Below, piece after piece: positions 3,420 to 44,419 of a stretch of 64,000 nt of DNA (the stretch's first letter is position 1; each line of letters opens with the position of its first letter). The translations under genes and the position numbers were made by a program. Source of the stretch: Eukaryota sp. GEM-RC1 (taxonomy: Eukaryota); contig JAUFOQ010000003.1 in assembly GCA_040285855.1 (NCBI GenBank), forward strand, positions 2,294,001 to 2,358,000. The letters are read 5' to 3'. The notes below the pieces were generated by a model. That model did not search any database. It was given only the letters and a program-made list of their open reading frames with translations, and was not told where the DNA came from.

Positions 3420-5417
3420 TTATTCTGTTGATAGATTCAGTGTCCTCATGATCTGTAACCTTTTTGATAATTTCAAACTAGGTAAATTCGAATTTGGTTT
3501 GAGAGTATTTCGAGACAATAGATTTGGTCTCAATTTAGGCAAAGTAGTAACTGTTGTTTTTTTCAGTTTTGGCACAGGTTTGTGAAAAATTAAATCAGAA
3601 TTGATGGCACTTATACTTTGATTATTGAAACACTCATCGTCATCATTCACAACAAAATCATTCATACTAGACGACGCATCGTCATCATCATCAGTTTCAT
3701 CATCTCCACTATCACTTCCAGAGACAACAACTTCATTATCGAATAATTCTAAAACTGAATCAGAAGTGGTATTCAAATTTTGAATTTTTGGAACATCTTC
3801 CACCAAATCTTCCTCAATTTCTTCATTGACTGGATCAAGAACATCAACAGTTTCCATACTTTCACCAACAATAGAAATAATATTGGACGAAAATTCATCA
3901 AAAGTTTTCAACACAGAAGGCCAATTTCTAACAATTCTTTCATCTTCTAATGGCAAAGGATAAAGAGGTTTAGTAACTGGTCGACAGGGGTGAAAAGTGG
4001 AATAATACCACTGATAAAGATCAATTCTTGGTTTGGGAAATCTAGAAGAAATATCTAAAATTTTAATTGAGTTCCAGTTCTTCACCCTACTCAATGTAAC
4101 GTACAATTGGGCATATTCCCAAAAATTTAATGAAACTTCAATTCCTTCAATTGTTAGTCCCTGAGATCTATGGACTGTTATTGCCCAACAAGGACGAAGA
4201 GGATATTGCAATCGGGATGCTATAATTACAGGCTTTTTCTTCTCATTCAACACCTCAATTTCAAATTTAGTCGGAATAATTTTAATTGGTTCCTCGTCCC
4301 TCCCGAATCTTACATTAATGAAATGTGAAGTTTCTGAAAAATCAATAATTTTGCCTTTTGACCCATTTACTAGGCCCAGATCTGGTTTGTTTTGGGTAAA
4401 CATTACCAAACCCCCGACGACACAGTGAAATTTTTGTTCGGCAAAATCGTTTAGCCTACTTGATAATTTTTTTACATTTAAATTAACAGCCTTTTCCATT
4501 TGTTCCTCATTAGGCTTACCAAATGCCCAACTTTTAACAATTTCTGATTTAATTAAGTTTTCATTGAACTTATCGAGGGAATGAAATTCAACATTTTCAT
4601 TCCCTTGTTCACATAATAATTCAAATTGCTTTAAATTTTCGTCGGCGACATCCTTGTTTCTAGCAAATAATTTGGTTGGACTTTCAATATTTTTGGCTAA
4701 TGACTTATGTTTCAATAAAATATGTTTCATATAGTCATCAAAAAGTCCGAGACGTAGTTCATTCAAAAAATTATAAAAATTGACATCATTTTGTTGGCGG
4801 ATACTTCCAGATAATTCAATAAAATTTAAATTCAAGTCCTTCCAAGACTGTGATGAAAACGTAAAGTCTGAAAGTTGAACGACACTACGCGTGTTTGAGT
4901 CAGACTTTACAATTGGTGCAAGTTGCAAAAAATCACCAAAAATTACAACTTGAAGTCCACCAAATGGTAACTGAGACTTTAGTAAATCTTTAAATATATC
5001 AGATGCTCTGTTGAATAGTTCAGCAGTCAACATTGAAATTTCATCAATAACAAGCATTGAATTTCGGGCACTAATAGTTCGTAAAACAGACTTAACACTT
5101 GAAGGCATAGAGCGAATGACATCAGATATTGGTTTTTCATTACGGATAAAATTATAACCAAAGAGAGAGTGTAGGGTTTGACCACCAAAGACAGTGGAAG
5201 CAACACCAGTAGTAGCAGTAAAAAAGACATGGCCATTGGGTCTCATTAGCTTGGAACCCGCATTAGACCACCACTGTTTAAGACAGTACAGTAGGTAAGA
5301 CTTGCCCGATCCGGCACCACCAGTAATGAAGAAATTTCGACGCTTAGAAGGTCTTGCATGAGTAATAGCTTGGAACACTTGAGCCTGTTCGTCTGTAAGT
5401 GTGTTGATAATGGACAT
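3420..5417 (-). CDS. PIF1: Pif1-family SF1B 5'-3' DNA helicase with acidic/basic C-terminal tail
   Basis: ITGGAGSGKS (Walker A), TATTGVAS, GQTLHS, VIDEISM, PFGGLQVVIFGDFLQLAPI, LVNGSKG, QYPLRPCWAITVHRSQGLT, QLYVTLSRV. Confidence 0.93.
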   Translation of the reverse strand: MSIINTLTDEQAQVFQAITHARPSKRRNFFITGGAGSGKSYLLYCLKQWWSNAGSKLMRPNGHVFFTATTGVASTVFGGQTLHSLFGYNFIRNEKPISDVIRSMPSSVKSVLRTISARNSMLVIDEISMLTAELFNRASDIFKDLLKSQLPFGGLQVVIFGDFLQLAPIVKSDSNTRSVVQLSDFTFSSQSWKDLNLNFIELSGSIRQQNDVNFYNFLNELRLGLFDDYMKHILLKHKSLAKNIESPTKLFARNKDVADENLKQFELLCEQGNENVEFHSLDKFNENLIKSEIVKSWAFGKPNEEQMEKAVNLNVKKLSSRLNDFAEQKFHCVVGGLVMFTQNKPDLGLVNGSKGKIIDFSETSHFINVRFGRDEEPIKIIPTKFEIEVLNEKKKPVIIASRLQYPLRPCWAITVHRSQGLTIEGIEVSLNFWEYAQLYVTLSRVKNWNSIKILDISSRFPKPRIDLYQWYYSTFHPCRPVTKPLYPLPLEDERIVRNWPSVLKTFDEFSSNIISIVGESMETVDVLDPVNEEIEEDLVEDVPKIQNLNTTSDSVLELFDNEVVVSGSDSGDDETDDDDDASSSMNDFVVNDDDECFNNQSISAINSDLIFHKPVPKLKKTTVTTLPKLRPNLLSRNTLKPNSNLPSLKLSKRLQIMRTLNLSTE

Positions 5418-5871
5418 TGAGTGTGTGAAGTGGTGATGTTTAAGATGCAGATTGTGCAGGGAAACTTTCCTTTCACTATAATTTATATATCTACCTCCAC
5501 TTTATGGAAAATGCTGGTCGTGTATAATTCTTAGAAGCTTGTTCTATCATGATGAGCTTTCTATCGTCTCATATGTCAAATTATATGTCTATGTAAAACG
5601 TGATGTTGGTGCTGAGATTGAGCTTGATGACAAGCAATGTTTCTTGTCCTTGGACTACTTTCGAGCACTTCAATACATATCCGAGTCTTTTAAAGTCACG
5701 CCCTTGATCTTACAAATCAAACATGAGATCTCTCTCCTAGCCCTCGTTGATGCCATTCTATCTGAAGACAAGGTATCTTCTGCTTCTGTTTCACTAAATC
5801 CAAGGTAATTCCTCCTCCTCCCTACACAGCTGATGTTCCTCGTAGAAGTAGAACACCCCGATTTGTGTTCT

Positions 5872-6675
5872 CTATATGTCGAATGTAATCTCCTTATTGC
5901 TATTTGTTATAAAATACAACTGTTCTTTATACTTAAGCAATGAATCAATGAAACTCACAAACTCCTTGTCACAATCTGCATCACATTCACAAATCTCATT
6001 CACATCAAACAAGTTGAACAACGAAGACACCCTTCTAACAACAACGGACATTTCAATAAACTCCTCATCTTGACTGTTCTCACACATAAGTATTATATCT
6101 GTCAATGTTTCAGAACATCCTGTAAACTCTTGGAATACTTCAGTAAGTAACAATTCCCTACATTCATCACCATTCAAGGATAGTAGCAAAACTGTCAATA
6201 CTTTAACTAGACACTGTCGATCATTAATACTCCAAAGAAATTCGGAAATATCATTGAGAAACAATATTCTTTCACACTTTGTGATCAACAACGTGTTATA
6301 CATTGCTTGTAAAGAATTTGCAAGTACAAATAACAGGACAGAAAAACAATTTAGCATTCCCTCAACATCTACACTACTACAACAACAACAAACAATTTTG
6401 AATACCACGTTCCACAATGGAATCGACGGCATTGTCTTACATTTCGCTAGTATATGTGAGCAGATTGAAAGTAAAGGAGATAAAGAAGTTAAGTCATCTT
6501 CAGGATTTGGATGAAAGCTCATACGATGTATGTGAGACAAAAGTGATGTCAATTTGTCAAGAGAGTTAAGTTCTCCTATGGCCATGCATTTGATACACCC
6601 ACATGCTTGTATTTGTTGAATGAGATATGTTTCAAAGAATGTTGCCAAACAATCTTGTAAGATATTGTTGGTCAT
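5872..6675 (-). CDS. Hypothetical Cys/Leu-rich helical protein
   Basis: 267-aa ATG-initiated ORF; no family recognised. Confidence 0.45.
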   Translation of the reverse strand: MTNNILQDCLATFFETYLIQQIQACGCIKCMAIGELNSLDKLTSLLSHIHRMSFHPNPEDDLTSLSPLLSICSHILAKCKTMPSIPLWNVVFKIVCCCCSSVDVEGMLNCFSVLLFVLANSLQAMYNTLLITKCERILFLNDISEFLWSINDRQCLVKVLTVLLLSLNGDECRELLLTEVFQEFTGCSETLTDIILMCENSQDEEFIEMSVVVRRVSSLFNLFDVNEICECDADCDKEFVSFIDSLLKYKEQLYFITNSNKEITFDI

Positions 6676-6768
6676 TGAATTGATAGTGAAGGAAAATATT
6701 TTTCCGGCAAAAATCCAATGTCAGTTGTATGTCTTTATTCACTCTCATTTCAGTCTTCAGATCATGCA

Positions 6769-7987
6769 ACGTCTATGTCTGTCAATTATAACAAGAAACG
6801 ACGCTCTAACGCTTTCCGAAGAAAGAATATGAACAAGCACCAGGATGTCTATAACGTCTTTAGTTATACATCGACAAAGGTGGATGGTAAAAGTGTTCAG
6901 CTCGGTCCCAATGGGGATTATATTCTAATTTCACGACCTCGTGATAATTCAACCGATGGACTTTCTATAAGTACCAACAATGATGAATTCCTCTCAGACT
7001 TGGTACAGTCTAAGGAAGACTTTTTGAGAATATTGTTCACTTTATTAATTCTAGAACTCAATATTTAGCTTCCCAAGGCGCAAAAGTACCAGACATTTCT
7101 TCACGTTTTAAGAAAGTGTATGGTATAAATCCTGAAGAAAACGAAGATCTTACTGAGTTTTATTCAATTGCTCCTAATGTTATTCATGAAAGAACTCATA
7201 TTGTTAAGAAAAAGAATAAGTACCTTAAAGAAGCTAATGTTGTTAGCAAAGAAGCCACAACTCCAGAACCTCTCACAAAGTCCTCTCGTAACTCTCCCGT
7301 CGAATCCGCTCCTTCTACTCCTACTGAAAACAATGAAATTCAATCCTCCCTAGGATCACTTGTTTCCAAGACTTTGGGACATCAGTGTGGAAAGGAAAAG
7401 CCTATCTCAGGCAGCGATAAGAGAAAGAAGTTAGAGATAAAGAAGTTAAATGTAGGACCTGTTTTGCAGAAACAACTGGCAAGTAGAACAAAATAAAGAA
7501 GATGTTGTTTATTGAATGAGATAAGTGTGCATGGTCTAGTATAGGACTCGAAGATGTGAAGTGAAGTCTAAGGTCTAGGTTCACTTTTCTTTCATACATG
7601 AATCCACTGATCTAATTCTAGATAACTGAACCTCAACCTAAGAAGATTGTTGACGTTGACAGCGTTGTCAAGACTGGTCATGAGGCAGTGACTACTCTTT
7701 TAGCAAACTCTAAGCATTCACTTGACGAGAAGGAACTTGAACTCATCTTTAGTGCAGTTGCTTCCGCCCTTCGTGAACCCCAGTAATTGAAAGAGCTATT
7801 CGAATTGCTGGTGATACTACTCGTGATACTGCTAGCCTCATACACCATATGCGATTTAAAACTCATCTTTAGTGCAGTTGCTTCCGCCCTTCGTGAAACC
7901 ACCACCCCAGTAATTGAAAGAGCTATTCGAATTGCTGGTGATACTACTCGTGATACTGCTAGCCTCATACACCATATGCGATTTAAA
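6769..7987 (+). CDS. Probable multi-exon hypothetical gene, possibly the 5' part of the helicase-derived gene downstream
   Basis: Co-oriented ORF pieces (6718..7068, 7116..7496, ~7620-7987) separated by short GT..TAG intron-like segments; exon structure uncertain. Confidence 0.3.
7741..7987. repeat. ~120-bp direct tandem duplication
   Basis: actcatctttagtgcagttgcttccgcc...caccatatgcgatttaaa occurs at 7741-7860 and 7861-7987, differing by a small indel. Confidence 0.9.
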
Positions 7988-8025
7988 TTTGTTTTTATAG
8001 ATCATTATTGTAGTTTTTGATGCAG

Positions 8026-11000
8026 ATGACCTTCTCGACACTCATCATTGCTCCATTGCTTCTTTGGACCAGCGCTCTGGTCGTGCTGGAAGAAATTCTC
8101 CTGGACTTTCGTTACGTCTTGTGCAGACAAACTTATATCCGAATGGAACTTCGAGATTGCATTACGACGAACCAGAAATTCTAAATTGTTCGTTGATTGA
8201 GCCATTGTTAACAATCAAACAGATCGCTGAAAATCCTCAATTTTTAATCAGTAATCGTCCAAATCCCCCTGAATTTTTTTATCAGTCAACTGCCTGATGT
8301 TCCTTCTAGCGAGAACATCATGTCTTCGGTTGATGTTCTTTTCCGCACTAATGTTCTTTCAAAAAACCAACTAAATTCTCCCCTTACTTATCTCGGAAAG
8401 ATTTGCACCAATGCCAATATTTCATTCTACAACTTCAAGTTTTTATTTTTCTGTTTAACAAACAATTACCTGTGTCCTGGATTGATTCTTCTTGCGGGTA
8501 TCAATTCTATGTCGTTCATTCGTTGCTCTCGTACAACTTTTATGTCATTTTACGATTTGTATACCTTTTCACAATCGATTCCTTTACTCAAACAACTCTC
8601 TACTATTGAAGAATCTAAAGTTGTACGTTCAGACATGTTTTTCAAATTATCCTTGGTTCATTACATTTTATGTGGCGAATTTATTAAAAATCTGGATATT
8701 GTCCCAACACGTGATCAAACCCTTAATGATCAAGCCCTTAAGAATTTATCTAAATTAGTTTTTTTGAAAAAACTAGAGCGATATTTAAATGAACTAAGAT
8801 CTTTAGTTTCACGTTTCGTGGATATGGAAGATTCTAATACTCATCTCAAAAATCAATTAATATCATTGGAAGGCATTGCTCTAAAACTTGTCAATTTCAT
8901 ATCAAATCCTTCTGAAGTTACACTCAATAAGTTTCGAAATGAATCAACAATCTTCTCTTCTCTTTTGAATCTCCAAATTCAACGACGTCTCTCTTTCAAG
9001 CCATTGTGGCTTCTTATCCCAATAAGTCATTCCATTCAACTGTAGTAGACAATTCATTCTCAGTTAGGTTGAAGTTGGAAGGTTATGTCAATGGAAAAAA
9101 TTTAACAGCTTTATAAAGAAATTGTTTGATGAACAAAAAATTGTCAAATCTTCCAAATCTCTAAAAGTTAATGACAGTGATGATGACAGTACTCGTTCAG
9201 AGACATTATGTTCAAAAGTTAAAATTACTTCAGATCTAGCTCCAGGTGAAACCGAAAGCACTGTTGTTATGTTGCATTCAGAGAATACAACTGAAATTGA
9301 AAATCTACTGTTTGTCAACAAGTGCCGTGGAACTCTTGATTCATTAAAAAATTTTCTCTTACGTTCCATCTTGATTGGTATAGATTCATTATCAAATCAC
9401 GATTCAATTTATCAATGGCATTGAAAGTTGTCAATGACCCAGAATTTTGGAACATGTACAACCAATTGTTACAGTGGGGTAATATCGTACATTTGCATAT
9501 ACCAAGAAATTCTATTAAATTAACTTTCGACATTATGTCAAGTCCTTGTAGTGATTTGACTCAATACACTCGTATTGATAATGAGTGGTCCAAGGAAGTT
9601 AAATGTGCCAAATCACTGTTCCCTGTACCTACAGATCTAGGTTATCATAATGGTATTTCTGTTGGTGATAAGTTTCCACAATTCTTGTCTCATATTCCTT
9701 CTTCTTTTCAATACTTGTTCATCGTATGGCTCATGAACTTCAATATCAATTTGGTTTCGGAAATGGCAAAGCCATCTATCAAGGTTGGTACACCAATGCA
9801 TTGTCAAGATTCGAGGTTCAAACAATTAATTGCATACAGTAATGAGCTGGATATTCATGGATCTTTTGAGGTAAAACGTGTCTGGAATGTTTACTGGCCT
9901 TATCATGAGTTACCAATCGAATCCACCTTTGGATGTATCAATCGATTACGTATTTTGGTATATTTAACGGAACAAGGTGAGGTTCCCATAACTGTGTTGA
10001 AATCGTGGTATGACAACATTATTATTCTTGATTTCAACTTACTGAAAAGTAACAGTCCACCAGTTACCGTGGATTATGTGAATGGAAGGAAACATCATTT
10101 CCAGTTACTAAATTTCCAAGTCAATGATGAACAGGACCTGTTGATGTGCTTTGATCCTGCGTGTCCTTTATGTGCATCATCATGTACTACACTTAATGAA
10201 GTAGTAAATTCTGAAATTACCTTAGCCCAACACAAGGTTGAAGAACCTATGATCCCCGAAAACGCTGACCTTCCTGAACCCATGATTAGTGAAACTACTG
10301 CATTGCCCCAGTCACCAGTAGCTACAAGTACTTTGGATTTGTCATCTTGGACTAAGTCGTATTGTACTGCCTCTTCTCATACTGCTAAATATTTAGGACA
10401 AAATGTTCAAATCTTAAATTTTACACGTGAAGAAATGAGAACTTTCTATGTTGTTTTTTCATTTGAATCAAAAATTGCCATTGGAACGTTGAATATAGAC
10501 AACGACGTTGTCGAAACTCTCCATACAGAATTTTTTTCTGCTATTACTCCTACTCCTACTCCTACTCCTGTGTTGAATGTTACATTACGATTTGTAGTCT
10601 ACAACATTGATAAAGAACTCCGAAGGTTCAGTCGCAGTATTGATGATGATAGACCACAGTGTAAACCATTTGACAATCAATTGACTATGTTTGCACTTCA
10701 TCATCAATTGCTTTACCAGGCCATACTGATTGCTTTTGAAGGGCCCATATTTATGATTCAATACAAGCCAAAAACAGACAAACGAAAGACTATTCGACAA
10801 GTATTACCGTTGCCGTTGGCCAGAGACAGTTTTGATTCTCAATGTATTGACATGGCTGCTGCAAAAATTGTTTTGTTGTCGCAACGAAGACTCTGTTGTT
10901 GATCATTTTTGTGCAGGAAGATGAAAAAATTGTGTTAATTGTTCAGAATTATCAACATTAATGGATTTAAACATGTCTGAAATTGATCGTGACGAAGAAT

Positions 11001-12011
11001 TCAAAAGTTTGAAGTGCTATGACGATTTCGTTCTAGTTGTCGGCACTTGTTCCATCCGAAAGTTAGACTTGTATGAAAGGGAGCTGCTTGGTGAACAACC
11101 TGTATGGGAATTTTGCTCCTGTCACAAAGATGACAGAATTATAGATGCAGTGTATGTTAAGCATTATGACACAATAATGTACATCACGGAATTTGGGTTC
11201 TGTGTTGGTTTCGGTTTGAAACTACCAAAGAAACAGATTCAATTTATTATTGATTGTTCAAGTGGTGAGTTAACAGGTCAACTGTTAAAAATCGATTTTT
11301 GCAATGATTTAAATTCTTTCATTGTTCTGAAAAGGATGGAACACTGTTAATGCTTTCAGCATTATCTGTGATTGGTATTTCTGGTGTACCATTAGAAGTT
11401 CATGATGTTCGCTCTTGTGATTCAAAAAATATTTACGAACAACGAAGTCTTGAACTACATGCTTTAACTGTTCAATCGACTCAACAAGTTCAACAAGTTG
11501 AGATTCCTGTTGTTGAAGAAAGTGCTCATCCCATCGACATTGATACGACGAAAAGACTTCAGTTTCTTTCATCTAGATGGAGTGTTGATGAAAAAATCAA
11601 CAAGGTGAAGCATTTGTTGACTATATTTGAGTTACAAAAGTTGTAATTACAACTGATTCAGTTGAAAAAGTAAGGAAACTTTCAAGGCTTGTTTCTGAGG
11701 TTGCTTTTAAAGTTGTGACACTAGAGGGTGGAAAACCACGAAAGATTACATCAAGTCTGAAAATATTCGATGAACAGACTGATCCTGTTTTATTGATCAG
11801 TACTACTCAATTAGCGGTTAACCATTCTGTTCGGGCTGATCTTTGTATAATCTTTGATCTGCCAAATGATGCCAGACATGTTTACAATTTGTATGAACAT
11901 AATCAAAAAATCGTTGTCTTTTACGATTCTATCCGTGATAAGGACAAAAAGCAAAATTTGGAAAAACACTTCTTTAGACCCTCAGGATTGCAATCACTTG
12001 ATTTTATATAG
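8026..12011 (+). CDS. Large degenerate helicase-derived gene(s): DEAH-box motif VI + HA2-like region, unknown middle, beta-rich segment, degenerate DEAD-box C-terminal RecA2-like segment
   Basis: QRSGRAGRNSPGLSLRL...PEILNCSL (DEAH motif VI region); LTYLGKICTNANIS...CPGLILLAGI (HA2-like); VLLISTTQLA...DLCIIFDLP (DEAD HelicC-like, motif VI lost); consecutive + ORFs linked by short introns or frameshifts. Confidence 0.5.
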
Positions 12012-12476
12012 TCTTTCAATAATTCATTGATGTTTTTTTATTCTGTAGAACAATATAATAATTATAAGTCTTTATTACAATTTTTTCTTTATTTATCAAT
12101 CAACGAAGAAGTTGATTGATTGGGTTTATCTGGTCTAAATTTATAATTTATACCATGATTTTTCACATAAACTATGCTACCACATCTACACTGAATATGT
12201 AACAAATTGGTCTGTTTTTATATGTCACATTTTCTGACATACTAAATCTGTAACAAATTTCTGTCAGATTTCAGGTGGATGAAATTCACGGATTGTTCTG
12301 TGTGTAATAACTATGTAACAAAACATTGGTATTCAGACTACGTCTGACACATTTCATTGAACATTGTAATATTCTACAAATATTGTTTATTTGATGTGTT
12401 ATTCTTATATGTTATACAAAATTATAAATACATCTATATTGTACTATTTATTCTCTATCACTATCAATTCATTTTT

Positions 12477-13994
12477 TTAAAGTCTTTTTGATTCCAAAAG
12501 CACTTGCAGTGGTTTTAATTCTTCGTTTTCCTGTTTTTTCCCTAAAACGTCATTTTCGTCTTTTGTCTTTGACGATTTGTTTTCAAATTTTGTTGTTGAA
12601 ACATCAATTACATTTTGTTCTGTCATCAAATCAGGTTGTACACTCTGAAGTAGATCATACATAACAAGACATAGATTTTTTCTTGATCTGTTAGTGTATA
12701 ATTTTGTCTGATTTTGTTCCTGACGTGCATCAACCATTAATCCTTGTAAAATTAAAGTAACATTCAAACAGACAATCCATCCACATATAAGAGACGATGT
12801 TGACTGTGCAAAAGGTATATAGTAGTCCACCTTATACTCTGGTAATCTTGCAAACAGATTTGTTTCCCCACATCCATAAACAGTTCTAAAAGGATTAACG
12901 ATTAATTCAGTGGTTAATGAATAATCCAAAGAATCATAAATATTGAATAATAAAACATTTGCTTCATTTAGAAACAATTCAATAAGAATCCAATGACCAG
13001 ATCCTGCATCACCAGGAACATGTTCTTTCACCAAACATAATGGGGCAAGAATTCTTTTTCCTGATTTTAGTGTATCGACAATAGCCTTACCAGAATGTAA
13101 GGCATAGCATATTGGATCACCTACCAACTGTTGAGTTTCTTGAGATTGCAGGAACTTGTACCTACTTGATTTAAATTTTTGGAATGCAAGCATCACAATG
13201 AAATCAAGTTCAGAACTCAACAAGAGTTGTGTTTTGCCTTCTCTATCATCCTTTGTCAACATTTTTTCAATATCACAAAATCCAAATTTTAATTTTGAAT
13301 TTATGTAAAACTGATCACTGATTAAATCTACAGAAAGAATCAACGGGTTACGTTGTTTTTTGCGTTTCATAGGTTTAGATAAATTAGCATTATCAATGAC
13401 CGGAACAGGAACTATTTCAGATGGTTCAGAGAAAATAGAATGAATATGATTGATTGCGAAGTTATCAATACGACGTTTTGGTGAAGGAAAAACGACTTGA
13501 GATGGAGTATCGTCAATGCGAGTAATGTCACAATCATGTAAAAGATTAGGAGATTGAGGCTGAGGAGGAGGAGGAGAAAGAGCAATTGTAACTCGTTTAA
13601 CGTCTTTGAGTAGATCCTTAAGATGATTTAGAGTTGAAGTTGTTGAAGGAAGTGGAAGAGATATGTCACGCTTCTCATAAGAACCATCAAAAGGAAAGAG
13701 ATGAACAGTTTCTAGATCAACATCTAGCACAATGGCAACGGATGATTTGTAGTTGAGGCAAAAATCCATGGTACCCTTTTTAAGATCATCTGGTAAGTCA
13801 GGTGTTGACACTTCCGTTATGTGGATGGATTTAGTTCTCCATGAATTGTATGTTCCATAAGGAAGAAGAACAAGTGACAAATTAACTGCATGCTTATCAG
13901 CAAGCTTTACAACAAGTTTCATATATGTTTTGATGGTACGGGAACGACTTTCTTGTTCAGAAGTATTTCTGAGTTTGAAGATTGAGTAGGACAT
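12477..13994 (-). CDS. Ulp1/peptidase C48-like (SUMO/ubiquitin-like deconjugating) cysteine protease
   Basis: ILAPL...GSGHWILI (His), IYDSL (Asp), AQSTSSLICGWIVC (Gln, Cys) in the order of the C48 catalytic core. Confidence 0.75.
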   Translation of the reverse strand: MSYSIFKLRNTSEQESRSRTIKTYMKLVVKLADKHAVNLSLVLLPYGTYNSWRTKSIHITEVSTPDLPDDLKKGTMDFCLNYKSSVAIVLDVDLETVHLFPFDGSYEKRDISLPLPSTTSTLNHLKDLLKDVKRVTIALSPPPPQPQSPNLLHDCDITRIDDTPSQVVFPSPKRRIDNFAINHIHSIFSEPSEIVPVPVIDNANLSKPMKRKKQRNPLILSVDLISDQFYINSKLKFGFCDIEKMLTKDDREGKTQLLLSSELDFIVMLAFQKFKSSRYKFLQSQETQQLVGDPICYALHSGKAIVDTLKSGKRILAPLCLVKEHVPGDAGSGHWILIELFLNEANVLLFNIYDSLDYSLTTELIVNPFRTVYGCGETNLFARLPEYKVDYYIPFAQSTSSLICGWIVCLNVTLILQGLMVDARQEQNQTKLYTNRSRKNLCLVMYDLLQSVQPDLMTEQNVIDVSTTKFENKSSKTKDENDVLGKKQENEELKPLQVLLESKRL

Positions 13995-14103
13995 GGGAAA
14001 TTCTGATATAGACTTTATTACAGATTTCGTTTTTTAACACGTGAATTCACACACACATGTCCATTACAGTCTGTGTGGGATTTCATTTTCCTTCCTCCTA
14101 CAG

Positions 14104-14110
14104 TATAAAT
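14104..14110 (+). promoter_or_regulatory. TATA-like box upstream of the hairpin pair and the 2A-Ulp1-Fanzor ORF
   Basis: TATAAAT within the divergent intergenic region; weak evidence in AT-rich DNA. Confidence 0.25.
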
Positions 14111-14149
14111 GTCGTTTGTTCTGCATCCAAACAGATGTTGTCCGCCATC

Positions 14150-14350
14150 CTGTCCTTATCTGACTCAACTTGTGACTGTTTCCATTGCACGGTTTCGGGC
14201 TCAGTTGAGTTTAGATAAGGACAGTTCTTTCCCCTCCACTGCCTCCGCTTCTGTTGCTTCGATAATGCCGCCATTCTGTCCTTATCTGACTCAACTTGTG
14301 ACTGACTCCATTGCACGGTTTCGGGCTCAGTTGAGTTTAGAAAAGGACAG
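14150..14350 (+). repeat. Two tandem (126-bp period) 75-nt hairpins
   Basis: CTGTCCTTATCT-GACTCAACT pairs with AGTTGAGTT-T-AGATAAGGACAG at 14150-14224; near-identical copy at 14276-14350. Confidence 0.9.
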
Positions 14351-14387
14351 TTCATTCTGTGTTTTATCAACACATACATTTGTTGCC

Positions 14388-14480
14388 ATGAAGTACTCGT
14401 CTCCCCTGTTTATCCCTTCCCATCCTCCGTTCCCAAAAGACCTCACCGCTGATGGTGATATTGAATCCAATCCAGGACCC
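14388..14480 (+). other. 2A-like ribosome-skipping (StopGo) peptide
   Basis: MKYSSPLFIPSHPPFPKDLTADGDIESNPG|P matches the D(V/I)ExNPGP consensus with preceding G. Confidence 0.8.
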
Positions 14481-17400
14481 GTAACTCAAGAAGCCATAAA
14501 CTCAGTTTATCCTAATCAATGGCTTGATGACGAAGCGATAGTGGAGTACTGTAAAGTGATATTTCAAGAAGCAGAGTTAGACTTTGAAAGAATGTTTATC
14601 CATCCGACCACATTGCTTCAATATATTGTTTCACCAGATGCCCTTCTTCGGCTAGATCAATGGTTGTTGACGAAAATTCAGCAAAATCAAAGAACAAACT
14701 CCAAATACCTCTTTGTTCCCCTTAGTGATACCATGACTAGAAATGCTAATTATTCCAGAGAAGGTGTCACTGGTTCTCATTGGGGTTTAGCCATTATAGA
14801 CTGTTGTGAAAAGGAATGGATCTTCATTGATCCGATGTTAACTACCGTCGATATGAGTAAGTCTATGGTAAAATCAGCTGTAGACATATTATCCGAAGTA
14901 CTTGTGCCATGGGGGTATGTTTTCCGTTATGTGCCTGTGACTAAAACACAGTCTGCTAACGACTGTGGAGTTTATGTCATTGCGTATATTCAAAAATATG
15001 TTGAACTTTTTAGAAGCCTCATGTATGTTCCGTCTCTGATGTATATGGAGTCTGATTTGGTCCAAGTGAACAGTGAACTTCAAGCAGACATATTTCGTGA
15101 AGAAATTCTGGAGGTCTTGTCTCAACAAAGGACACTTTATCTACAACAACGTCAAACCACAGTAGCTCCTATTGTACCATCGTTACCCATTCAACCTCCT
15201 GCCGGTAAAGAACATCCAACCACTTCAATTCCTCTCACAGGTTCACGTCTTGCTAGCACTAAAACATCTACTGGTTTAAGCACTAAAAAAAGTAAAGCCA
15301 AAATTTCTGATATTCCATCACCACGAGGTTCACCTTTAATTCAACGAAATCAATTTAGAACTACCAGCTCCCTTGTTTCAACTGGTGACACTCCAATACG
15401 AAAGACTCACCGCCGTATGTCCACATTGGAATCATCGGAATTACCATCATCTGAACTATCATCACCATCTGAACTACCATCATTAACTGAACTACCACCA
15501 AAAACACAGGCCTCCATTATGTCGTATCCAACGCCAATTCAAGAAGAAATCCATAATATGGAAGTAAATCTACACACTGAGGTTATCGAACAAGAAATAC
15601 AAATTCAAGACTTTCTTAAATCCCCTCTACTTTGGAACAATCTGCCAACTTTTTGTTTAATTCATGTTCAAAGTGATTTTGCCAAAAAGAAAGAATTAAT
15701 GGCAGAAATGTTCAACTTGTTCAAGAAGATGATGATGACATTGAAACTGTTGAAGGTGAAGCTGAAGATCAATTAGAAGTTAAACGTGATTCTTCTGTTG
15801 ATCCGATTGTATCAATTTCCATCCAGATCATTGATCACAATGAGTTTAATGAAAAACATTTATTTTCTCATGGCAATTTTGATACTACAAACTTGGATTT
15901 GTGTACTTTACATATTTCAGATAGTGAATCCAGTATGCTTAAAAACTTCATTTCCTTCATTACTCAACATTGTCCACGATTGTTTGTGAGTTATGATTTT
16001 CATTTAGATACATTTCCCTTTCTTGTATCACGTTGTCAAGTCCTCAAAATCAATACAACGTTTACTTTTCCAGAATTTAAACCCTACATTCCCTTTTGGT
16101 TCAACAAATGGTGTAAGGAAACAACTTTTGGTCCGTTTTTTAGCCTCGATTTGAATGCTGTACTGAAGAATTTTTATGTCTTTACTGGTGGCCGTTTTTT
16201 GGAAAATGTTGTTCAAATTTTTCTTGAAATGAATAATTTTTCTAAAAATGAAACTGTCAAACGCTTGGAAGAACTTAAGCATGACTCTGATCCTGATGAA
16301 GTTCAATTAGTCAATAATGTCCAAAACTTGCATGGCATAATTGACAGTATTAATGTTTTAGTTCCAGACAATCCCAAAGTGAAGGTCGATAAGATTAAAA
16401 AGAAATTTGTAAGAAATTTGGAGAAAGTAAATGAACTTTGGGCCAAGGAATCGACAAGACCGCTATTGTTGATAAACTCAATTCAACAATTACCTCTGAT
16501 TGAGTACTTGTTGGCTGACCTATTGGATCCCAAAAAACAAACATTACGTTCAAAGTCACCAATGAAAGTGGTTAAGAAACGACTGGACAATGTTGTATCC
16601 AAAGCGAAGGTTAAATTTATTGAATCTCGTGTTAAGAGAGCTCATCAAGTAAGAGTACGTGGTTCTCTCTTTTTGAAACATTTTTTTGTTCATAATTTTC
16701 ATCATTCGGGTATTTTAGGTTACATTCAGAAGTTACTGCCTGCTACTGTTCCAAATGTAACTGTTAAGGAAGAAATGAATTCTGATACAAATGAGTCAAC
16801 TGATGAAGAAACAGATGTACATTCAGAGTCTATCCATGCTGCTACTCCTCCTATTAAATTAGAAAATATTGAAGATGTGAGTGGTGAACCTGAACTTGAC
16901 CTTTGGTCCAAAATTCAAACTAACAAATTTGAATTGCCAGACTGGAAGAATTTTTTTACGTTGAAATCAATGGAACAAGTGTTATCTATGATGACGATTA
17001 GGGACGAAAGACTTGTAAACAATCAGAATCATATTAGGACTGTAAAAGAGTCTTTAGAAAACATAATTTCTAAACCAAATGAGGCCTCAACTCAAAATCA
17101 GTTTGCTCAACACTTCTTGATGCATTACATTCCTCGTTTAGAACTAGCTGCTCGATCTGTTGGACTTGATAGGATTGTGTTTCCCAGTAGCCTCAATTTA
17201 TCTCCTATATTGCACTACATGGCTACTGAAATTATTACAAATTACAAGAATAACATGAGTGAACACTTTCACGAATATGTTTTTCAAGTATTTAATTTGG
17301 TTACCCTGAAAAAAGATAGACTTAACAAGCTTACTGATAAGAATCAACGACAAGAGTTGTGTACAAAGCTTAATGAAGTCAGACAGTTGATCATTAATGG

Positions 17401-19441
17401 GGAAATTTCAAAAATTAATTTTCAAGATGTTGAAGTGTTTCCTGATCCCAATTCTAGACTGAGTTTACTTTTTTTTAACTATTTGTTTACTTTTTTTGAA
17501 GGTAAAATGGAAAAAACAATCTATTATGCTGAAAAAGTAGATCCTTTGAAATTCTTAAGTCATGCAGTGTATTTGAAACGTCTTGTTGAAGACTCATGTA
17601 CTGGTGTTACTGCCAATAATCCTTTTCCTCTGACAAAATCATTGATTCCTAATCATATCAGATTGGACACTACATGGTTTAAAAAAGTTTATGCAAGGCA
17701 TATTTCAGGTAGCTATGATGACGTGCGAAAAGATATTTGGCACTCAGTTTTGAAACCAAAGTGTCTTCCAAAGTCATTGTCTCATGACTTCAAATACAGT
17801 TCTATTTCTACAGATGGAGTTAGCTGTAGTTTAATAATGATGCGGAAAGATCTGCTTGATGGGAGAGGAAATCCTCATAAGAAGGTGAAAGCAGTTGACT
17901 ACACAGCTACTGAAAGGTACATTGATTCTTTGAGTTCCACAGAAATTCAAAACTTAAATTTGAAATCGAAAAGAATTGTTGCTATTGATCCTAATCAGCA
18001 TGATTTGATGTACTGTGCTTCTTTAAAATCTAAGGAGGAAAAGGAAATCGAAGGTTTCGATACATCAGCCAAAATCAGAAGAAGAAAGATTTCTCCAAAA
18101 TCATCAAAGAAAAAAGGAAGCTTGAAAAAATTAAAAAAGGAATTGAAGGATTGGAAAGACGCACCCACTATTGACAAACCAACAACTGTCAAGTTGAAAA
18201 ATCGTGATGATTGGAAAGTATTCCGATACACTGCTGGGGAGCGCAAGGCAGATATGAACAAGTCTCCATGGAAAAGAAAAAAACAAGGAAGGAAAGAAAA
18301 AGAGCTAAGAGAAAGAAGAGGAAGCTGGAGAAGAAAATAAGACGATATAATCTCCATCGTTTATCTGAATCCGAACGGTTACAACAATATTCTACTCAAT
18401 ATATTCACAGTCCAAGTGGCAGACGCATTGACATAAATGGGCAGCAAATTTTAGATGGTTGGGGCTCTAACTCGCCAGGCAGTAAATCTTGTGAATTGTC
18501 TGAATTTTCTGCTTTTGTTCTTGGTAAAGAAATTGCCTGCTCTTTGCTACGATCACCCACTAACTACGATCAAAGAAATACTGAAGGAATTTACGAAGAA
18601 AAGTGGTTTAGACGGAATCGTCTCACACAGTATTCAAGAAAGGAACGAAGTGAAAAAACATGCTTCACAGATTTGCTCTCCAGTTTGGAAACCCAGATGA
18701 AGTCGTTGTTGGGTATGGAGACTGGAACGACACTGCTTTTCGTCGAAGAAGAGGTAAAGCATCTACTGTAAAAGGTGCTTCAATTCGGAAATTATTGAGA
18801 AAATTTGGATTTAAAGTGTTCCTAGTTGATGAATTTAAGACCAGCAAATGTTGCTCTGCATGTGTTTCCAGAAACGACGAAGGTATCTGTTCCAATCCTG
18901 AAAGGATAAAAGTCACTGATCCTCATTGGAAGAAGAAGTTACAGAAGGAAGAGAAAGAATTAAAAAGGAAATTTTGGAACACAATCAATTAGACAATATT
19001 GTGGAGCGTAACTTTGATGATGAATGGACCAAACAGTTGACATTATCGAAAGAAAGATTGAAGAGCAAAAAAGTCTCACCATGGGGCTTAGTTGAATGTG
19101 CTAAATGTCATGTCCTCTGGAATAGAGACTTCAATTCTGCTATCAATATTTACAATATTGTAAATGGAACCATTCAAGGTCAAGGTAGACCTGCCATCCT
19201 CGAGAGACCAAAATCTCAAACAACACCTGTCGTGGATGGCGGGAATACAGATCAGATTCCTAAGAAAAAGACTGTGAGTAAGGGTAAGGGTAAAGCAAAG
19301 CGTCCTCTAACAAAAGTCAGAGGTCCTAACAAGTGTGGTATATGTTTTCAACCTGGACATAACAGAGCAACTTGTCCAAATAAGCCTAAGAAAGATGTAC
19401 CCAAGGACTCACACGTAAACCAGAAAGATCAGGAATCTTGA
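14388..19441 (+). CDS. Reconstructed multidomain Fanzor: 2A peptide - NEDP1/Ulp1-like protease - S/T/P linker - inactive PolB-type 3'-5' exonuclease - Fanzor1 RNA-guided RuvC nuclease - CCHC knuckle (~1685 aa after four +1A corrections)
   Basis: Protease QWLDDEAI, GSHWGL, FIDPM, QSANDCGVYV; Fanzor STDGVSCSL, RuvC-I IVAIDPN (D 17987), VGYGDW, RuvC-II VDEFKTS (E 18831), CSAC/CAKC zinc ribbon, RuvC-III WNRDFNSAINI (D 19127); all four frame changes are -1 and fall at A runs (15684-88, 18277-83, 18653-58, 18962-66). Confidence 0.8.
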
Positions 19442-19640
19442 ATCTATGAAGTTAGCTCGTCTTAAAAGACTTTGCGAATGAGGATATTTGTCTAATAATT
19501 TAGACATTTGTTCAAACTGTGAGTTTTGCTCTATATGAGATCATGAAAATGTGAAGGGTTATGCCTTTTGCATTTGGAATGAAATTCACAGGATGTCAGA
19601 AAGAATCTCCATCTCACAACACTGTAGTGTTGTTGTCAAT
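19442..19640 (+). ncRNA. Candidate Fanzor omegaRNA scaffold (ends uncertain)
   Basis: Directly downstream of the Fanzor stop; nested stems with G-U pairs 19517-19527/19581-19591 and 19547-19558/19564-19575, plus hairpins near 19459-19470, 19489-19506 and 19616-19633. Confidence 0.55.
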
Positions 19641-19771
19641 AAAAATAAGGTTTTCAAAAAAAACTGTTATAGAATTATTAGATATAGTATGTACAATATA
19701 ACGCTAAAACGGACCTACTAGATGCTAGGACGATTGATTGGGAAATTTGTTTAGAACAAATTGTGTTGTTG

Positions 19772-19930
19772 TAGAGCTGTCAAACGGTTCGGCTCAAGCC
19801 GTAAACCGAACGACTTGTGCCAAGTCATATCGAAATTTGGCTTGGCTTACTCAAATGGCTCAAGCCAAAGCCGAACCAGTTTGGATTTCTCCAAGCCAAA
19901 CCATTCGGCTCAAGCCGCGGCTTGAACTTA
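19772..19930. mobile_element. Possible hAT-like element end / MITE remnant
   Basis: Begins TAGAGCTG like the TIR at 39606, followed by repeated GGCTCAAGCC / AACCGAAC subterminal motifs; no partner end found. Confidence 0.4.
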
Positions 19931-20167
19931 CTTCGAACAATATAAATAGTAAATGAACAAGTTGACCAAGTTCATTACATACATCGATTCATAAGACGCA
20001 CAAACAAATACAAAAAGTTATAGAAATACCGCTAGCGCACTCATAATTGTGGTCATTACTGATAAAATTGTTATCAGTATCAGTTGTGGTCATTTATTGA
20101 CGGACACAGTAAACCATTTTTTCAGGAGCCAATTTCTGTATTTTGGTTTCAGGTTGTAGGTTCCAAG

Positions 20168-20739
20168 CAATGTGCGCAAATCTTTGGTACGTACCGTACG
20201 TACCGATTTATTTTATCCGTACCGATGTCATTTGATTTTATTAAATGCCCTGTTTACGAATGGTCTAAATGTATTTACAAATACCATTTTTGTAGTGGAG
20301 ATTCATTGCCTGGTCAAACACTGTACTAATACAATTTGCTTCTGCATAAAAAAATACACTCTTTGGGTTTTAGGGCCCTTCATCCTTGTTATATATCGTA
20401 ACAGTCACTCATAACATGCGCTGTGAGTCGGAGACGCTACCATTGTTAATTTCTTGCGATTACTGAGATTTGTATATACCATTGTCATTTTGGGACAGTT
20501 GTGGTCAGCAAATGATGTAACCTAAATTTGAATAAGTGTGACAATCTTGATCTTAATATCATGAGCTTTGTTTAACGGCACAATGTATGACGATGGTAAC
20601 TCTTAAAATGTCACAGTGGATTATCATGTTCAAATTAGTATTAATAAATTTTTGTCGGCCAAAAGTACAGTACCATACGTCCGTACTTACGGTACGGTAC
20701 GCCTAAAATCGCTGCGGTACGGAACATTTGCGTTCCATG
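20168..20739. mobile_element. hAT-type MITE family A, copy 1
   Basis: Imperfect TIRs CAATGTGCGCAAAT / ATTTGCGTTCCATG; perfect 8-bp TSD GTTCCAAG (20160-67, 20740-47); GTACGTACC subterminal repeats. Confidence 0.9.
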
Positions 20740-20970
20740 GTTCCAAGTATCATTTTAAGTTCATTTGTACAACTAGAATGATTCATTACTGAATATTAAT
20801 TTACTTGATTACCTTCACTAGACAGTACTGGTGTTATGCAACAGGGAAATGAAAACAATGGAAGAGCAATTTAAGATCTCATGAGATACAAGGAAGAAAA
20901 CTGGGAATCTTAAAAACAAAGACTCCATCTAAACAAAGTCTTAATACTAAATTCACACGAAAAATCAAAA

Positions 20971-22106
20971 CTAACGAGCAACTAACGTGACAACATCCTC
21001 ATCTTCTAGAACATGACTCAGACCGACTCGTTGTCCTGTTTCATGTTTAGCAGAGGCACCATAGACTATGGCATACTTAAATCTAGCCTCCATTGTCGAG
21101 TGAATATACCTACACATATTCCTGATAGTTCCACCTTTTCTTAAAACTACGGGATCGGTAAAGTCAGGTGGCGATCCCTTTGGTTTAGTATAGACTCTTA
21201 CAATGTCAAGGTGTTCCCAGATTGTTTTTAACAGCATGTCCATGTTCAGATTGTGCAGGCAAGAAATAGGAACATAGTGTGGCAGTCTAGCTAGTCTATC
21301 AATTTCCTCCATAACAATGTTATCTATTTTGTTGTAAGCTACAACACACGGCATATAGACCCTGTTCTTTGACAGAACATCAATTAAAGCATCTACACCG
21401 AGATCTTCACGGTACAGGACTTCAGCATTGTTGATCTTGAAATCATGTAGGACTGTTGTAACTGTCTTGAGATCTATCTTTGAAAGAGTCAGTGAACTCG
21501 ACAACTTGATTCCTCCTGTTTTAGTAATACGAACGTTAACATCCGGTGGCCTTTGGTTTAGTCTAATACCAATATCGCTAACTTCTTTGGTCAGAAGACC
21601 AACTTCTAGTTCAGCTTTATCAGCATCCGCCATGATTAGACACAAGTCTGCACTTCTAATGACACTAAGAACTTCTCGACCTCGTCCTTTACCACTGGCT
21701 GCTCCTTCAATAATACCGGGAAGATCAAGAAGTTGAATCTGGACGTCGTTGTATCGAAGATTACCAGGAATACAATCAAGAGTACAGAAATCAATGGCAG
21801 ATACGTCAGATTTAGTATCTGTCAGAAGTCCGAGAAGTGATGATTTACCTGAGATAAGACTGTTAAGGAAGAGGAACTAACCAACAGAAGGAAAACCGAG
21901 GAGAGCTACACGAACATCTCCAGATTTTTCTACTGCAAACCCCGTACCAACCCCTTTAGCAGAAGACTTTGCATGATCTTCTATAAGTTGAGATCGAAGT
22001 TGAGCAAGACGAGCTTTTAGTCGACAGAGATGACTTTCAGTGGCTTTGTTTCGCTGTGTGCGAGACATCTCCTTTCGATTTCAGCAATACGTTCAGCAAT
22101 ACCCAT
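20971..22106 (-). CDS. DRG2: Developmentally regulated GTP-binding protein (DRG2/Rbg2-like, OBG family with TGS domain)
   Basis: [70 protein letters not shown]; intron 21849-21881; one frameshift near 22073. Confidence 0.9.
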
Positions 22107-37600: not shown

Positions 37601-38667
37601 CAGAGATTTCAGGATCTTCAGATAAATCAAGCGATGACATTGGTTGAAATTTACAGATGAACAACCACGCTTTTTATAAAACGAAAATAAATACAATGCA
37701 ATAAAACAAAGACAGTAAAATGTAATGCACCTAGTCCTATTAATATTCTAGAAAAATTGTACATGTACATATTTGTCTAGCTAGCTTGTTTCTGTTTTAA
37801 AATTTAAGTTATAGTTGTGTCTGCAAATCGGTTGGTGCTTTCCAGATGCATTCTTGCTCTTCTATCACCCTCTCCGTTAACACTAATTCTCTCCTTCTCT
37901 ATCTCAACCGAATTGCTCTTAAGACTTATTTTGTGGCTCAAACAAAAGTGACTGCAAGTAGAGGCGATCGCTTCTCCACTGTGAACAATGCTCTTTCACG
38001 TTAACATCCACATTACATCGTTCCAGTAGACGGAACATGTCCCGAAATATTGAATTAGGAATGAAAGTCTTAGTCTACAGTTGGTTGCATATTGTGTTCT
38101 CCAATAATAGATTCTAGCAGTAGTTGATCCTCCATTTCTAGTCCAATGTACTACTATGTAATAATCAACTTTAAATACAATAGCGGCGTGTTATATACTG
38201 TACTACATTTGTATTTGTGTATTCATAATTTCAACTGCAGAAACAGTAAAATACGAACAAAAACTAAACTCTTGTAACATTAGTAGCGAAATTACTTTTT
38301 GAAAGCTTGTTTAAGGGTTCATGTACGTATAAGTGGGAATCATCATCACCAATAAGTGCTACTTGTAAAGGATTACCAATCAAGAAGGTAGAATGATCAG
38401 TTACATTAATAACACCATTAACAAGACGGGTGTTGCTGTGAGTTCAGGTACCGTCTCCAAATATGAGTAAAAGATGATCATCAATAATTCTTTAGATGCT
38501 TTTCTGACTAATCCTTCAAATTATCAAGACATCTAGGCCAACAGTACGAACCTCGGTAGTGTAATGTGAGAAACTGTATTAGTATTTTCACTCCTAGAAC
38601 TTGATCTGTTAAAAAAAGCTTCTGTGGAATTGCTGATATTTATGAAACATTAGGTTTGTCTCTAAAC

Positions 38668-39184
38668 CATGGAACGCAAATGTTCCGTACCACAGCGATT
38701 TTAGGCGTACCGTACGTACGGTACATGTACCGGTACTGTACTTTTGACTAAAATATACTATTACTAATTTGAACATGATAATCCAATTTGAGATTTTAAG
38801 AGTTACCATCGTCATACATAGTGCCGTTAAACAAAGCTCATGATATCAAGATCACGATTGTCACACTTCTTCAAATTTAGGGTACATCATTTGCTGACCA
38901 CAACTGTCTCAAAATGACAATGGTATACAAATCTCAGTAATCGCATGAAATAAACAATGGTTGCGTCTCCGACTCACCGCGCATTTAATAAGTGACTGTT
39001 ACGAGATATAACAACGATGAAGGGCCCTAAAACTCAAAGAGTGTTTTTTTAAACGATTATAAGATTCCGAAGCAAATTGTAATAGTATAGTGTTTGACGA
39101 GGCAATGAACATCCACTCCAAAAATGGTATTTGTAAATACATTTAGACCATTCGGAAACACGGCATTAAAATTTGCGCACGTTG
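38668..39184. mobile_element. hAT-type MITE family A, copy 2 (inverted relative to copy 1, short internal deletion)
   Basis: CATGGAACGCAAAT...ATTTGCGCACGTTG; perfect TSD CTCTAAAC. Confidence 0.9.
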
Positions 39185-43309: not shown

Positions 43310-44419
43310 CTACTCAATGTAATTCTTATGTACATACGAAGACGTAAAAGCTTTCAACATCACAGTATAATCAATTTTGAAGTTGAGCACTGAACCAATG
43401 GTCAAATCTTCCTCACAATCTGTCACATCAACAATTGTATGGTCCGAACTTCCACCTAACACGATTGCACCTTTGTTTAGTGGTTTCAGTCCTGATACAG
43501 TAATGTCCTGTTCACCTACCGCCAGTATGGCTCTTTTTCTGATTCCGCGATCCTTGAATACTGGCGTTCTGCCAAATGCATCCTTTCCGATTTCACCATA
43601 CGGCACTGATGGCTTTTCTTTCAGTTCCTTCGATTAGCATATAATTTGACATACTATTATCTCAGCAGAAAGTGTAAAAGCTCTTTGGTGCATTTCTGGG
43701 AGATCTTTATCATAGCAACACTCGCGGCCAAGAAACACAGCCTCACCTAGGCGCAAGTTGGTGATTCCAGATGGCATAGTTTGATCCAGGACAAGATGTA
43801 AGCTGCTGGTATTCCCACCAGAAACGATGGAAAGTTTTTTGCCAATGACATCTTCAATTTCTTTCGATAGTGATGCGAGGCGGCCAATGTTCACTGTGGA
43901 TGGATTAACACCGCCAAAGCAAGTTAGATTCACACCCAGCCCAGCGATGTGCACATTGGAGAACGTTGAAGCTTTTTTCACGATAGCTATTAGATCCTTG
44001 GGCAATATTCCTTCACGTAGATCCCCTAGGTCTGTCATTAACACGATGTTGACATTCTTTCTTTGTCGGATACACTCAGCGTTGAGGGCTTCAATACTGG
44101 TAAGTTCAGAAATTAGCACGTTATTAACCACCGAAACCACTTCACGCATTTCGGAGAGCATCGGAATTCTTAATAGAGTTAGCTGACACTGTTGTTGAAA
44201 AAACGATCTTAGTTTCTTGAGATTTGCCATTCTGCTGTCCGCAAAGGAAGACGCACCAGCAGATAGCAAAGTCTCACAAACACGTAGATCGGCACAAACC
44301 CCCTTGACAACAACATCGATGTTGATGCCAAGTCGTTTGTTGAGACGTTGAAGGTAGGCGACATTATGGCGGAGGCACGACAGGTTAACATTAACACATG
44401 GGTATTGAGGTTTAGACAT
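43310..44419 (-). CDS. Alanine/ornithine racemase-family PLP enzyme (Orr/YhfX-like)
   Basis: VVKGVCAD (PLP Lys), ADSRMANL, LLRIPMLSE, DLGDLREG, SGGNTSS, NLRLGE, GGSSDH; 27-nt intron 43628-43654 restores EII|ELKEKPSVPYG. Confidence 0.88.

Follow-up and report, generated by a model that had tools for sequence, protein, structure and literature searches.

Described Fanzor1 systems and the skoliomonad locus

Described Fanzors are mostly nucleases of 600–700 amino acids (aa) that reside in DNA transposons, and this is the length of most Fanzor1 (Fz1) proteins (PMC11423790). A residue motif published for Fanzor1 in 2013 consists of a conserved D followed by [TS][TS]xx, a C4 zinc finger and RD, with 125–275 residues between D and TS (PMC3627910). 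The RuvC-II glutamate lies six residues ahead of the zinc finger, the omega-RNA is derived from the 3' end of the Fanzor1 element itself, the target-adjacent motif (TAM) is AT-rich, and the Fanzor guide is formed by the 14–15 nt immediately past the element end (PMC13565253). The Chlamydomonas elements CRe-1/2/3 carry Fanzor1 without a transposase of their own; they are often truncated at the 5' end while the 3' end is intact, their target-site duplications (TSDs) vary, and they have been classed as Helitron2 (PMC3627910). That pattern would fit retrotransposition too. Within the portions covered of the Fanzor literature (PMC3627910, PMC10530073, PMC10711439, PMC10432273, PMC11423790, PMC6338049, PMC13565253), a fusion to an exonuclease, a C48 protease or a 2A peptide is not reported. 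The supplements of PMC10530073, apart from domain figure S1B, and of PMC10432273, apart from a scanned PDF, do not contain the text "exonuclease", and a literature search combining Fanzor with metamonad found nothing.

The locus described here lies in a 64,000-nt stretch (the window) of contig JAUFOQ010000003.1, positions 2,294,001 to 2,358,000, from the anaerobic protist Eukaryota sp. GEM-RC1, a skoliomonad, which is a free-living metamonad (PMC11316075). On the + strand it encodes a long chain in which a 2A-like motif, a C48 protease, a family-B polymerase-type exonuclease, a Fanzor1 nuclease and a zinc knuckle follow each other. The skoliomonad family of exonuclease-fused Fanzors, with the protease as an optional part, is a new variant of Fanzor1. 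The complete reading that we propose is that of a multi-copy mobile-element gene, a 2A-exonuclease-Fanzor1 fusion broken by likely sequencing errors, that spreads as RNA by means of the reverse transcriptase (RT) of a retrotransposon with which it shares its tail; taken as a whole, we consider this proposal evenly balanced.

The locus shares with SpuFz1 (8gkh), PpFz1 (9cf0) and GtFz1 (9cer) the fold, the RuvC triad with its glutamate just ahead of the zinc finger, and the GDW and TDG motifs. Unlike these, the Fanzor part is about 880 aa long and is contained in a chain of 1473–1685 aa with 2A, exonuclease, protease and knuckle. It also differs from CRe-1/2/3, which have introns and, in the text covered, no additional domains reported (PMC3627910). 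Other parts of the protein recall retrotransposons without long terminal repeats (non-LTR). Ulp1 proteases are N-terminal in NeSL/Utopia elements (PMC4640811), and 2A is found near the N-terminus of many non-LTR open reading frames (ORFs) (PMC3708506). The N-terminal Ulp1-like protease is thus a likeness to NeSL/Utopia and the N-terminal 2A a likeness to L1Tc/Ingi/CR1/L2, but in contrast to all of these the ORF described here has no RT, APE or restriction-like endonuclease and has a Fanzor instead.

A natural, lineage-wide fusion of Fanzor1 to an exonuclease, with versions that are catalytically intact and dead by their residues side by side and with an optional SUMO/NEDD8-type protease, makes it possible to study the influence of a eukaryotic RNA-guided nuclease on the repair of the break that it introduces. 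The unbroken proteins of a sister species, TZLM3-RCL, could be expressed unchanged.

An exonuclease-fused Fanzor1

By sequence and by predicted fold the nuclease is a Fanzor1; its RuvC triad is complete and it is predicted to cut. The Fanzor1 part (16562–19200, + strand) comprises the REC/WED regions, the RuvC-I aspartate at 17987, the RuvC-II glutamate at 18831, a TNB zinc finger and the RuvC-III aspartate at 19127. The joined protein contains 2A, STDGV, IDPN, GYGDW, DEFKTS, two CxxC, NRDFN and CCHC knuckle motifs, and the 2013 Fanzor1 motif is matched in all its residues (D1201, TS, CxxC twice and RD). The RuvC-II glutamate is found at the Fanzor1 position, DEFKTSKCCSAC. The distance from D to TS is 284 residues in the window protein, 281 in its relative P0041 and 254 in P0025, and the excess over the published range would fit RuvC insertions like those of PpFz1 (PMC11423790). 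The Pfam matches of TNB and zf-CCHC fall below the cut-off. For P0202, which is 95% identical to the window, the best PDB match is SpuFz1 (E = 8.5e-15). A structural model of P0041 matched PpFz1, SpuFz1 and GtFz1 with Foldseek E-values of 1e-16 to 1e-22 (2e-22 for PpFz1; 2e-20 for SpuFz1, with a target-normalised TM-score of 0.79), as against 0.033 for Fz2 and 0.099 for TnpB, and Cas12 also came far behind Fz1. In a quick tree, ten skoliomonad Fanzor cores, including a piece from TZLM1-RC, formed one clade with respect to 34 other Fanzor1 proteins (SH-like approximate likelihood-ratio test, 100). The identification of a Fanzor1 with a complete triad and a CxxC/CxxC zinc ribbon in the preliminary description of the locus is upheld by these motifs and by the matches to SpuFz1 and PpFz1.

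The protein is read from five + strand ORFs (14109/14388–15776, 15677–18340, 18211–18771, 18654–18992 and 18920–19441), which give a stop-free chain of 1685 aa when joined with X placed at four A runs. The frame is already open from an upstream ATG at 14109, across two hairpin repeats, and its sole in-frame stops are those that result from the four shifts. Breaks 1 to 4, each a likely assembly error, lie on the + strand at 15684–15688 (A5), 18277–18283 (A7), 18653–18658 (A6) and 18962–18966 (A5). Dozens of gene models with the label Eukaryota sp. GEM-RC1 are the nearest relatives, and two neighbouring genes of the window likewise fall into 90% clusters with proteins so labelled. Among the 35 proteins at least 80% identical to the joined frame, from 210 proteins examined, the near-identical copies are in register at break 1 in 11 of 12 cases, at break 2 in two of four, at break 3 in five of five and at break 4 in 11 of 13. 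The exceptions are P0208, broken at the same A run at break 1; P0194 and P0203, which get past break 2 via a nearby shift only; and P0097 and P0195, broken at break 4. Break 2 is also crossed by divergent proteins of subfamily C. The near-identical proteins cross the four breaks without gaps, so invented introns are no explanation. The stop-free join and the read-through of the copies bear out the single frame of about 1685 aa, broken at four A runs, that had been proposed for this locus.

The four breaks are probably long-read or assembly errors, because the copies' own breaks fall at other homopolymer runs. Out-of-frame tails in other copies (36 proteins) begin within 6 nt of a run of at least five bases in 10 of 11 cases, against a background of 12.6%; counted by distinct site, seven of eight do so. 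An Hsp70-type gene of the window is likewise broken, at a G5 run. Short-read correction performs poorly in repeats. The assembly of the named paralogues was made from MinION R9.4 reads with Canu and short-read correction (PMC11316075).

Unbroken ORFs of the family were found in TZLM3-RCL. P0041 (1473 aa), obtained by an exhaustive search with the paralogue P0025 as query, and P0188 (1479 aa), from the cluster of P0041, both begin with 2A, which is followed by a Ser/Pro/Thr linker, then a PolB exonuclease (E = 5e-13) and finally a whole Fanzor1, with neither protease nor knuckle; P0025 itself (1182 aa) is exonuclease plus Fanzor. Since these unbroken proteins carry it without the protease, the core of the family, as read from the sequences, is 2A-exonuclease-Fanzor1, and the protease would be a later, optional subfamily module. 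The exonuclease rather than the protease is, on the same grounds, the conserved partner, and that the fusion is real, with an exonuclease-fused Fanzor in one frame, we hold with high confidence. The C48 protease is present in the window as previously described, with PF02902 above the cut-off and the catalytic triad intact in all 12 subfamily A copies that span it. Its place as the defining partner of the Fanzor is contradicted by the full-length TZLM3-RCL proteins and by subfamily B (two models), in which the catalytic Cys position is occupied by Ser. The paralogues to which the preliminary description had pointed as a check thus retain the exonuclease-Fanzor fusion without a break, and the protease is not among their domains.

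The exonuclease domain (15654–16561, + strand; DNA_pol_B_exo1, PF03104, E = 4.7e-7, above the Pfam cut-off) has DNA polymerase delta as its best match both by sequence and by fold. It was folded separately, from a relative, since its part of the long model was of low confidence; the model of the domain from P0162 matches Pol delta with E = 4.8e-8 at a mean pLDDT of 58.7, and comparison with the Atlas also places the domain as a PolB-type exonuclease. The models of P0041 and P0162 agree with the assignments made earlier for the two domains. The active site of DEDDy exonucleases is made up of ExoI (D-x-E), ExoII (D) and ExoIII (Y..D). In the alignment these residues are kept in P0041, P0188 and P0190, and most of them are missing from the aligned GEM-RC1 subfamilies, this copy included, so that the window copy, judged by its residues, is a pseudo-exonuclease. 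The term "dead exonuclease" is therefore apt for this degenerate copy, but the domain is a conserved partner with its ExoI/II/III residues kept in TZLM3-RCL. The proofreading domain of DNA polymerase delta differs in being attached to a polymerase domain, which is lacking here. Among the near-identical copies the exonuclease is the least variable region: its amino-acid divergence is 2.5%, and that of the protease and REC regions reaches about 8%, a difference that is a lead only given the uneven depth of the copies.

An exonuclease domain was not detected in 122 other Fanzor hits, nor an exonuclease, protease, 2A or RT in 25 metagenome Fanzor loci; the two best of the loci inspected (L002 and L003) each hold a Fanzor1 gene of about 670 aa that stands alone. 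In L002, which is a giant-virus-like contig, the stand-alone 675-aa Fanzor1 (5281–7308) has a duplicate of its own C-terminal piece ahead of it (4908–5267). The label "virus-like" given earlier to the polyprotein found no support: viral contigs gave 31 pattern-matching stretches and no relative, and an N-terminal 2A is also typical of non-LTR retrotransposons (PMC3708506).

The remaining parts of the chain, all on the + strand, begin with an in-frame leader (14109–14387) of two tandem hairpin repeats (14142–14231 and 14268–14357), which lie 126 bp apart, are 94% identical and form a long hairpin each (folding z = −4.55 and −3.96). The repeat peptide is present 0–3 times among the leaders of 11 paralogous gene models. 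The leaders of P0208 and P0209 hold another 5' repeat peptide, present three times, with the frame unchanged and the start similar, which suggests that the leader repeats are replaced over time without a change of position. No Rfam family matched positions 11000–21000 at E ≤ 1, which rules out a known ribozyme for the 5' hairpins. The 2A consensus is D[VI]ExNPGP. It is satisfied by the motif DIESNPGP (14388–14480), at which ribosome skipping is predicted to release a short leader; the motif occurs in 11 GEM-RC1 and three TZLM3-RCL proteins (one of them a variant) of 330 examined, and skipping activity depends on the residues upstream (PMC3708506).

The C48 (Ulp1/SENP-like) cysteine protease (14481–15137) matches PF02902 with E = 8.6e-6 and 26.2 bits against a cut-off of 20.7. 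Its triad is H131/D148/C193 (H at 14778, D at 14829, C at 14964), the oxyanion Gln is also present, and the Atlas score against C48 clusters is 0.96; sequence matches in the PDB are weak (E of at least 0.008). A Ser/Pro/Thr-rich, likely disordered linker (15138–15632) follows, and a similar linker comes after 2A in the TZLM3-RCL proteins. The CCHC zinc knuckle lies in a basic tail (19334–19375), where the motif was located with the Pfam match below the cut-off. Subfamilies A and D of GEM-RC1 and one TZLM1-RC piece have it; the full-length TZLM3-RCL proteins do not.

The shared 3' tail and a proposed mode of spread

Past the Fanzor stop codon lies a structured non-coding region (19442–19633, + strand), a candidate omega-RNA scaffold, with a folding z of −2.92 for 19440–19580 and several stem-loops, the last at about 19616–19633. 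It runs into a tail (19619–19695, + strand) that the element has in common with a retrotransposon, a new observation that was missed in the preliminary description. Comparison of the window with itself matched 19619–19663 to 62307–62263 on the minus strand, within the 3' remnant of an RT/endonuclease non-LTR retrotransposon (62255–63471, − strand) whose 3' untranslated region (UTR) holds the shared tail and whose family is the proposed partner in trans. The tail consists of the 3' UTR match with AATAAA and an A8 run (19619–19674) and a second block (19675–19695). In the remnant it begins 14 nt past the stop codon; in the Fanzor element it lies in sense orientation, 178 nt past the stop, and overlaps the last stem-loop. 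The core is identical at 25 of 26 nt and is followed by AATAAA and an A-rich run in both places. The alignment has a local score of 52, with a null maximum of 29 and a score of 30 for the next best of 628 window tiles. The 26-nt core, a pattern derived from the match itself, occurs at two places only in the window and in none of 100 shuffles. A general polyadenylation motif was ruled out, given these two occurrences and AATAAA within 120 nt of only two of 13 other ORF ends. The shared tail was not found in the retrotransposon remnants that end near 43 kb and 58 kb.

The last residues of the remnant (to 62328) align in tblastn with the C-termini of full-length RT proteins of TZLM1-RC, which match R2 and LINE-1 in the PDB; we presume the family to be CRE-like. 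The precomputed Pfam list of one RT protein, P0242 (2292 aa), names RNase H, Peptidase_C48 and SET domains.

Spread through RNA, so far undescribed for Fanzors, is likely because this copy and the nearby retrotransposon have their 3' tail in common, and the tail is a credible, single-copy sign of retrotransposon-style mobility. The points that we count in favour of such mobility are the shared tail with its AATAAA and A run, the lack of terminal inverted repeats (TIRs) and transposase, the unlinked neighbours, the variable 5' tandem repeats, and the occurrence of 2A in many non-LTR ORFs and of Ulp1 proteases in NeSL/Utopia elements and in P0242; judged from these sequence features, it stands for us at about an even chance. 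The closest parallels would be the non-autonomous partners of non-LTR elements, the short interspersed elements (SINEs) and HAL1, which resemble this copy in having an A-rich 3' end in common with an autonomous retrotransposon. SINE tails derive from partner long interspersed elements. HAL1 elements retain a single protein gene and depend on the RT acting in trans (PMC3627910). Unlike in these, the cargo here is a large nuclease polyprotein. If the tail holds across copies, this would be the first Fanzor on a retroelement, contrary to what the current homing model expects.

Transcription would start from the 5' repeat region of the element, and 2A would shed a short leader to leave one protein of about 1650 aa. 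Its Fanzor1, as established for such nucleases, would load an omega-RNA that stems from the structured 3' end, and a TAM together with a match to the guide would mark the DNA site that it cuts. The fused 3'-5' exonuclease may trim 3' ends at the cut; by its residues it is catalytically intact in TZLM3-RCL, and in the window subfamily it is likely just a nucleic-acid-binding module. The protease, to judge from its intact triad, may remove SUMO or NEDD8 locally from proteins of chromatin or repair. As with SINEs, the resident RT/endonuclease retrotransposon would generate the new copies in trans by way of the shared tail. A more specific possibility, which we think unlikely, is RNA-guided target-primed retrohoming, conceivable because the polarity of the R-loop, the one point that argues for it, is that required for target-primed reverse transcription. 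With the 3' end of the element's transcript as its guide, the Fanzor would cut the target strand and leave a 3'-OH paired to this RNA. The exonuclease would trim the end so that it is in register, and the shared tail would recruit the RT of the partner retrotransposon, which would copy the whole 5.5-kb RNA into the cut. If true, this would be a natural programmable gene-writing system.

Several observations weigh against the proposal as a whole and lend themselves to other explanations. No single near-identical protein covers all four breaks, or the protease together with RuvC-III, and the full subfamily chain has been pieced together from gene models that overlap and from the ORFs of the window; among 4211 candidate proteins of 1554–4435 aa no full-length relative was found, which is weak evidence. 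One break is common to four copies, and homopolymer slippage occurs in vivo too and would yield a similar pattern. A genuinely decayed pseudogene, or a protease and a Fanzor made separately through a programmed frameshift or from two genes, would account for the lack of a whole near-identical gene model and for the fact that several copies have some of their breaks at the same run. We nevertheless consider this improbable: every break is crossed in other copies, the catalytic motifs are all intact, in-frame stops come only from the four shifts, and the ORFs of the sister species are unbroken. With regard to spread through RNA, the tail is known from one element copy only, and its weaker second block (score 30), which is like the stop-codon region of the retrotransposon, sits after the tail and not before it. 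No clear TSD was found at the element flanks, which share words of 7–9 nt at best; an 11-mer pairs 12114 with 19732 at borderline significance. Among 120 RT proteins retrieved, none had the 2A motif and none had an exonuclease domain in the precomputed Pfam lists, so neither an origin of the element's 5' parts in that retrotransposon nor local RT elements as carriers of 2A or exonuclease are supported. A 2026 review, in the text covered, states that retrotransposons gain no advantage by keeping a Fanzor (PMC13565253).

The fusion could also be real and reside in a non-autonomous DNA transposon, Helitron2-like or unclassified and without inverted repeats, with the tail as a 5'-truncated retrotransposon fragment or a shared insertion target; we regard this as a possible but doubtful explanation. 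The carriers of described Fanzor1 are, in the sources covered, all DNA transposons, among them Helitron2 elements with terminal hairpins and unclassified ones without TIRs (PMC3627910, PMC13565253), and the element has strong hairpins at its 5' end and a small one near its 3' end, which also fit Helitron2 and weigh against spread through RNA. The window moreover holds several retrotransposon remnants and a multicopy PIF1 helicase, of which two of 14 copies lie within three locus tags of a Fanzor piece (P = 0.07). However, the PIF1 ORF has no Rep/HUH match, and no inverted-repeat pair was found between the presumed ends. Helitron2 elements combine hairpins at both ends with short asymmetric inverted repeats; of these features, hairpins are seen here. 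A fragment or shared target would also have to coincide with the extreme 3' UTR, in sense, 178 nt past the Fanzor stop and over the last stem-loop. In addition, the TIR transposons that carry Fanzor1 (Mariner, hAT, MuDR, Sola, IS4) differ from this element, in which no inverted repeat exceeded the null (best score 19, null mean 20), no TSD is clear and no transposase match was found in the flanking ORFs scanned. Far less probable in our view is that the shared sequence is the guide itself, with the element ending near 19618 and an omega-RNA by which the nuclease targets the resident retrotransposon family in its 3' UTR, for homing or suppression. The 14–15 nt just past the element end do serve as Fanzor guides (PMC13565253), and the structured region stops about where the match starts, but the shared bases form part of the stem of the last hairpin, and a clean insertion into that UTR would leave retrotransposon sequence in the left flank, where there is none.

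Neighbouring genes and other features of the window

The left end of the element is probably between 14034 and 14109, because the two neighbouring genes are unlinked to the Fanzor copies. A divergent gene (12477–14033, − strand) has a His-Trp / Asp / Gln..Cys pattern that resembles a second CE-clan protease; it has no Pfam match and no significant similarity to the fused protease, and is multicopy, with 16 members at 90% identity. A stand-alone PIF1 helicase (3420–5501, − strand; E = 1.9e-32) is found in 19 copies. Both were ruled out as parts of the element by a linkage test of 14 named locus tags per gene against at least 74 Fanzor tags, in which 0 of 14 copies of the divergent gene and three of 14 of PIF1 lay within 12 tags of a Fanzor. 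For two of the 14 PIF1 copies the divergent protease-like gene has a copy nearby (P = 0.05), and PIF1, this gene and helicase fragments at about 8001–8297 and 11631–12011 may make up a separate large mobile element.

Remnants of non-LTR RT/endonuclease elements lie at 40470–43150, 39201–39582, 56686–56856, 57459–57986 and 62255–63471, the last with an internal inversion of about 380 bp. A non-coding repeat of about 610 bp is present in three copies that are 78–88% alike (20133–20742, 38664–39170 and 55862–56477); two adjoin retrotransposon remnants and one lies 470 nt past the Fanzor element. The palindrome-rich segment 19775–19920, with short repeated motifs and a folding z of −5.1, is possibly a small non-autonomous element. 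Two back-to-back genes (58317–59905, − strand, and 59910–61796, + strand), of which the first breaks at the G5 run, we take to be Hsp70-like from their motifs. An ORF at 43634–44425 (− strand) is presumably related to bacterial-type alanine/ornithine racemases, again by its motifs, and may have been acquired by lateral transfer.

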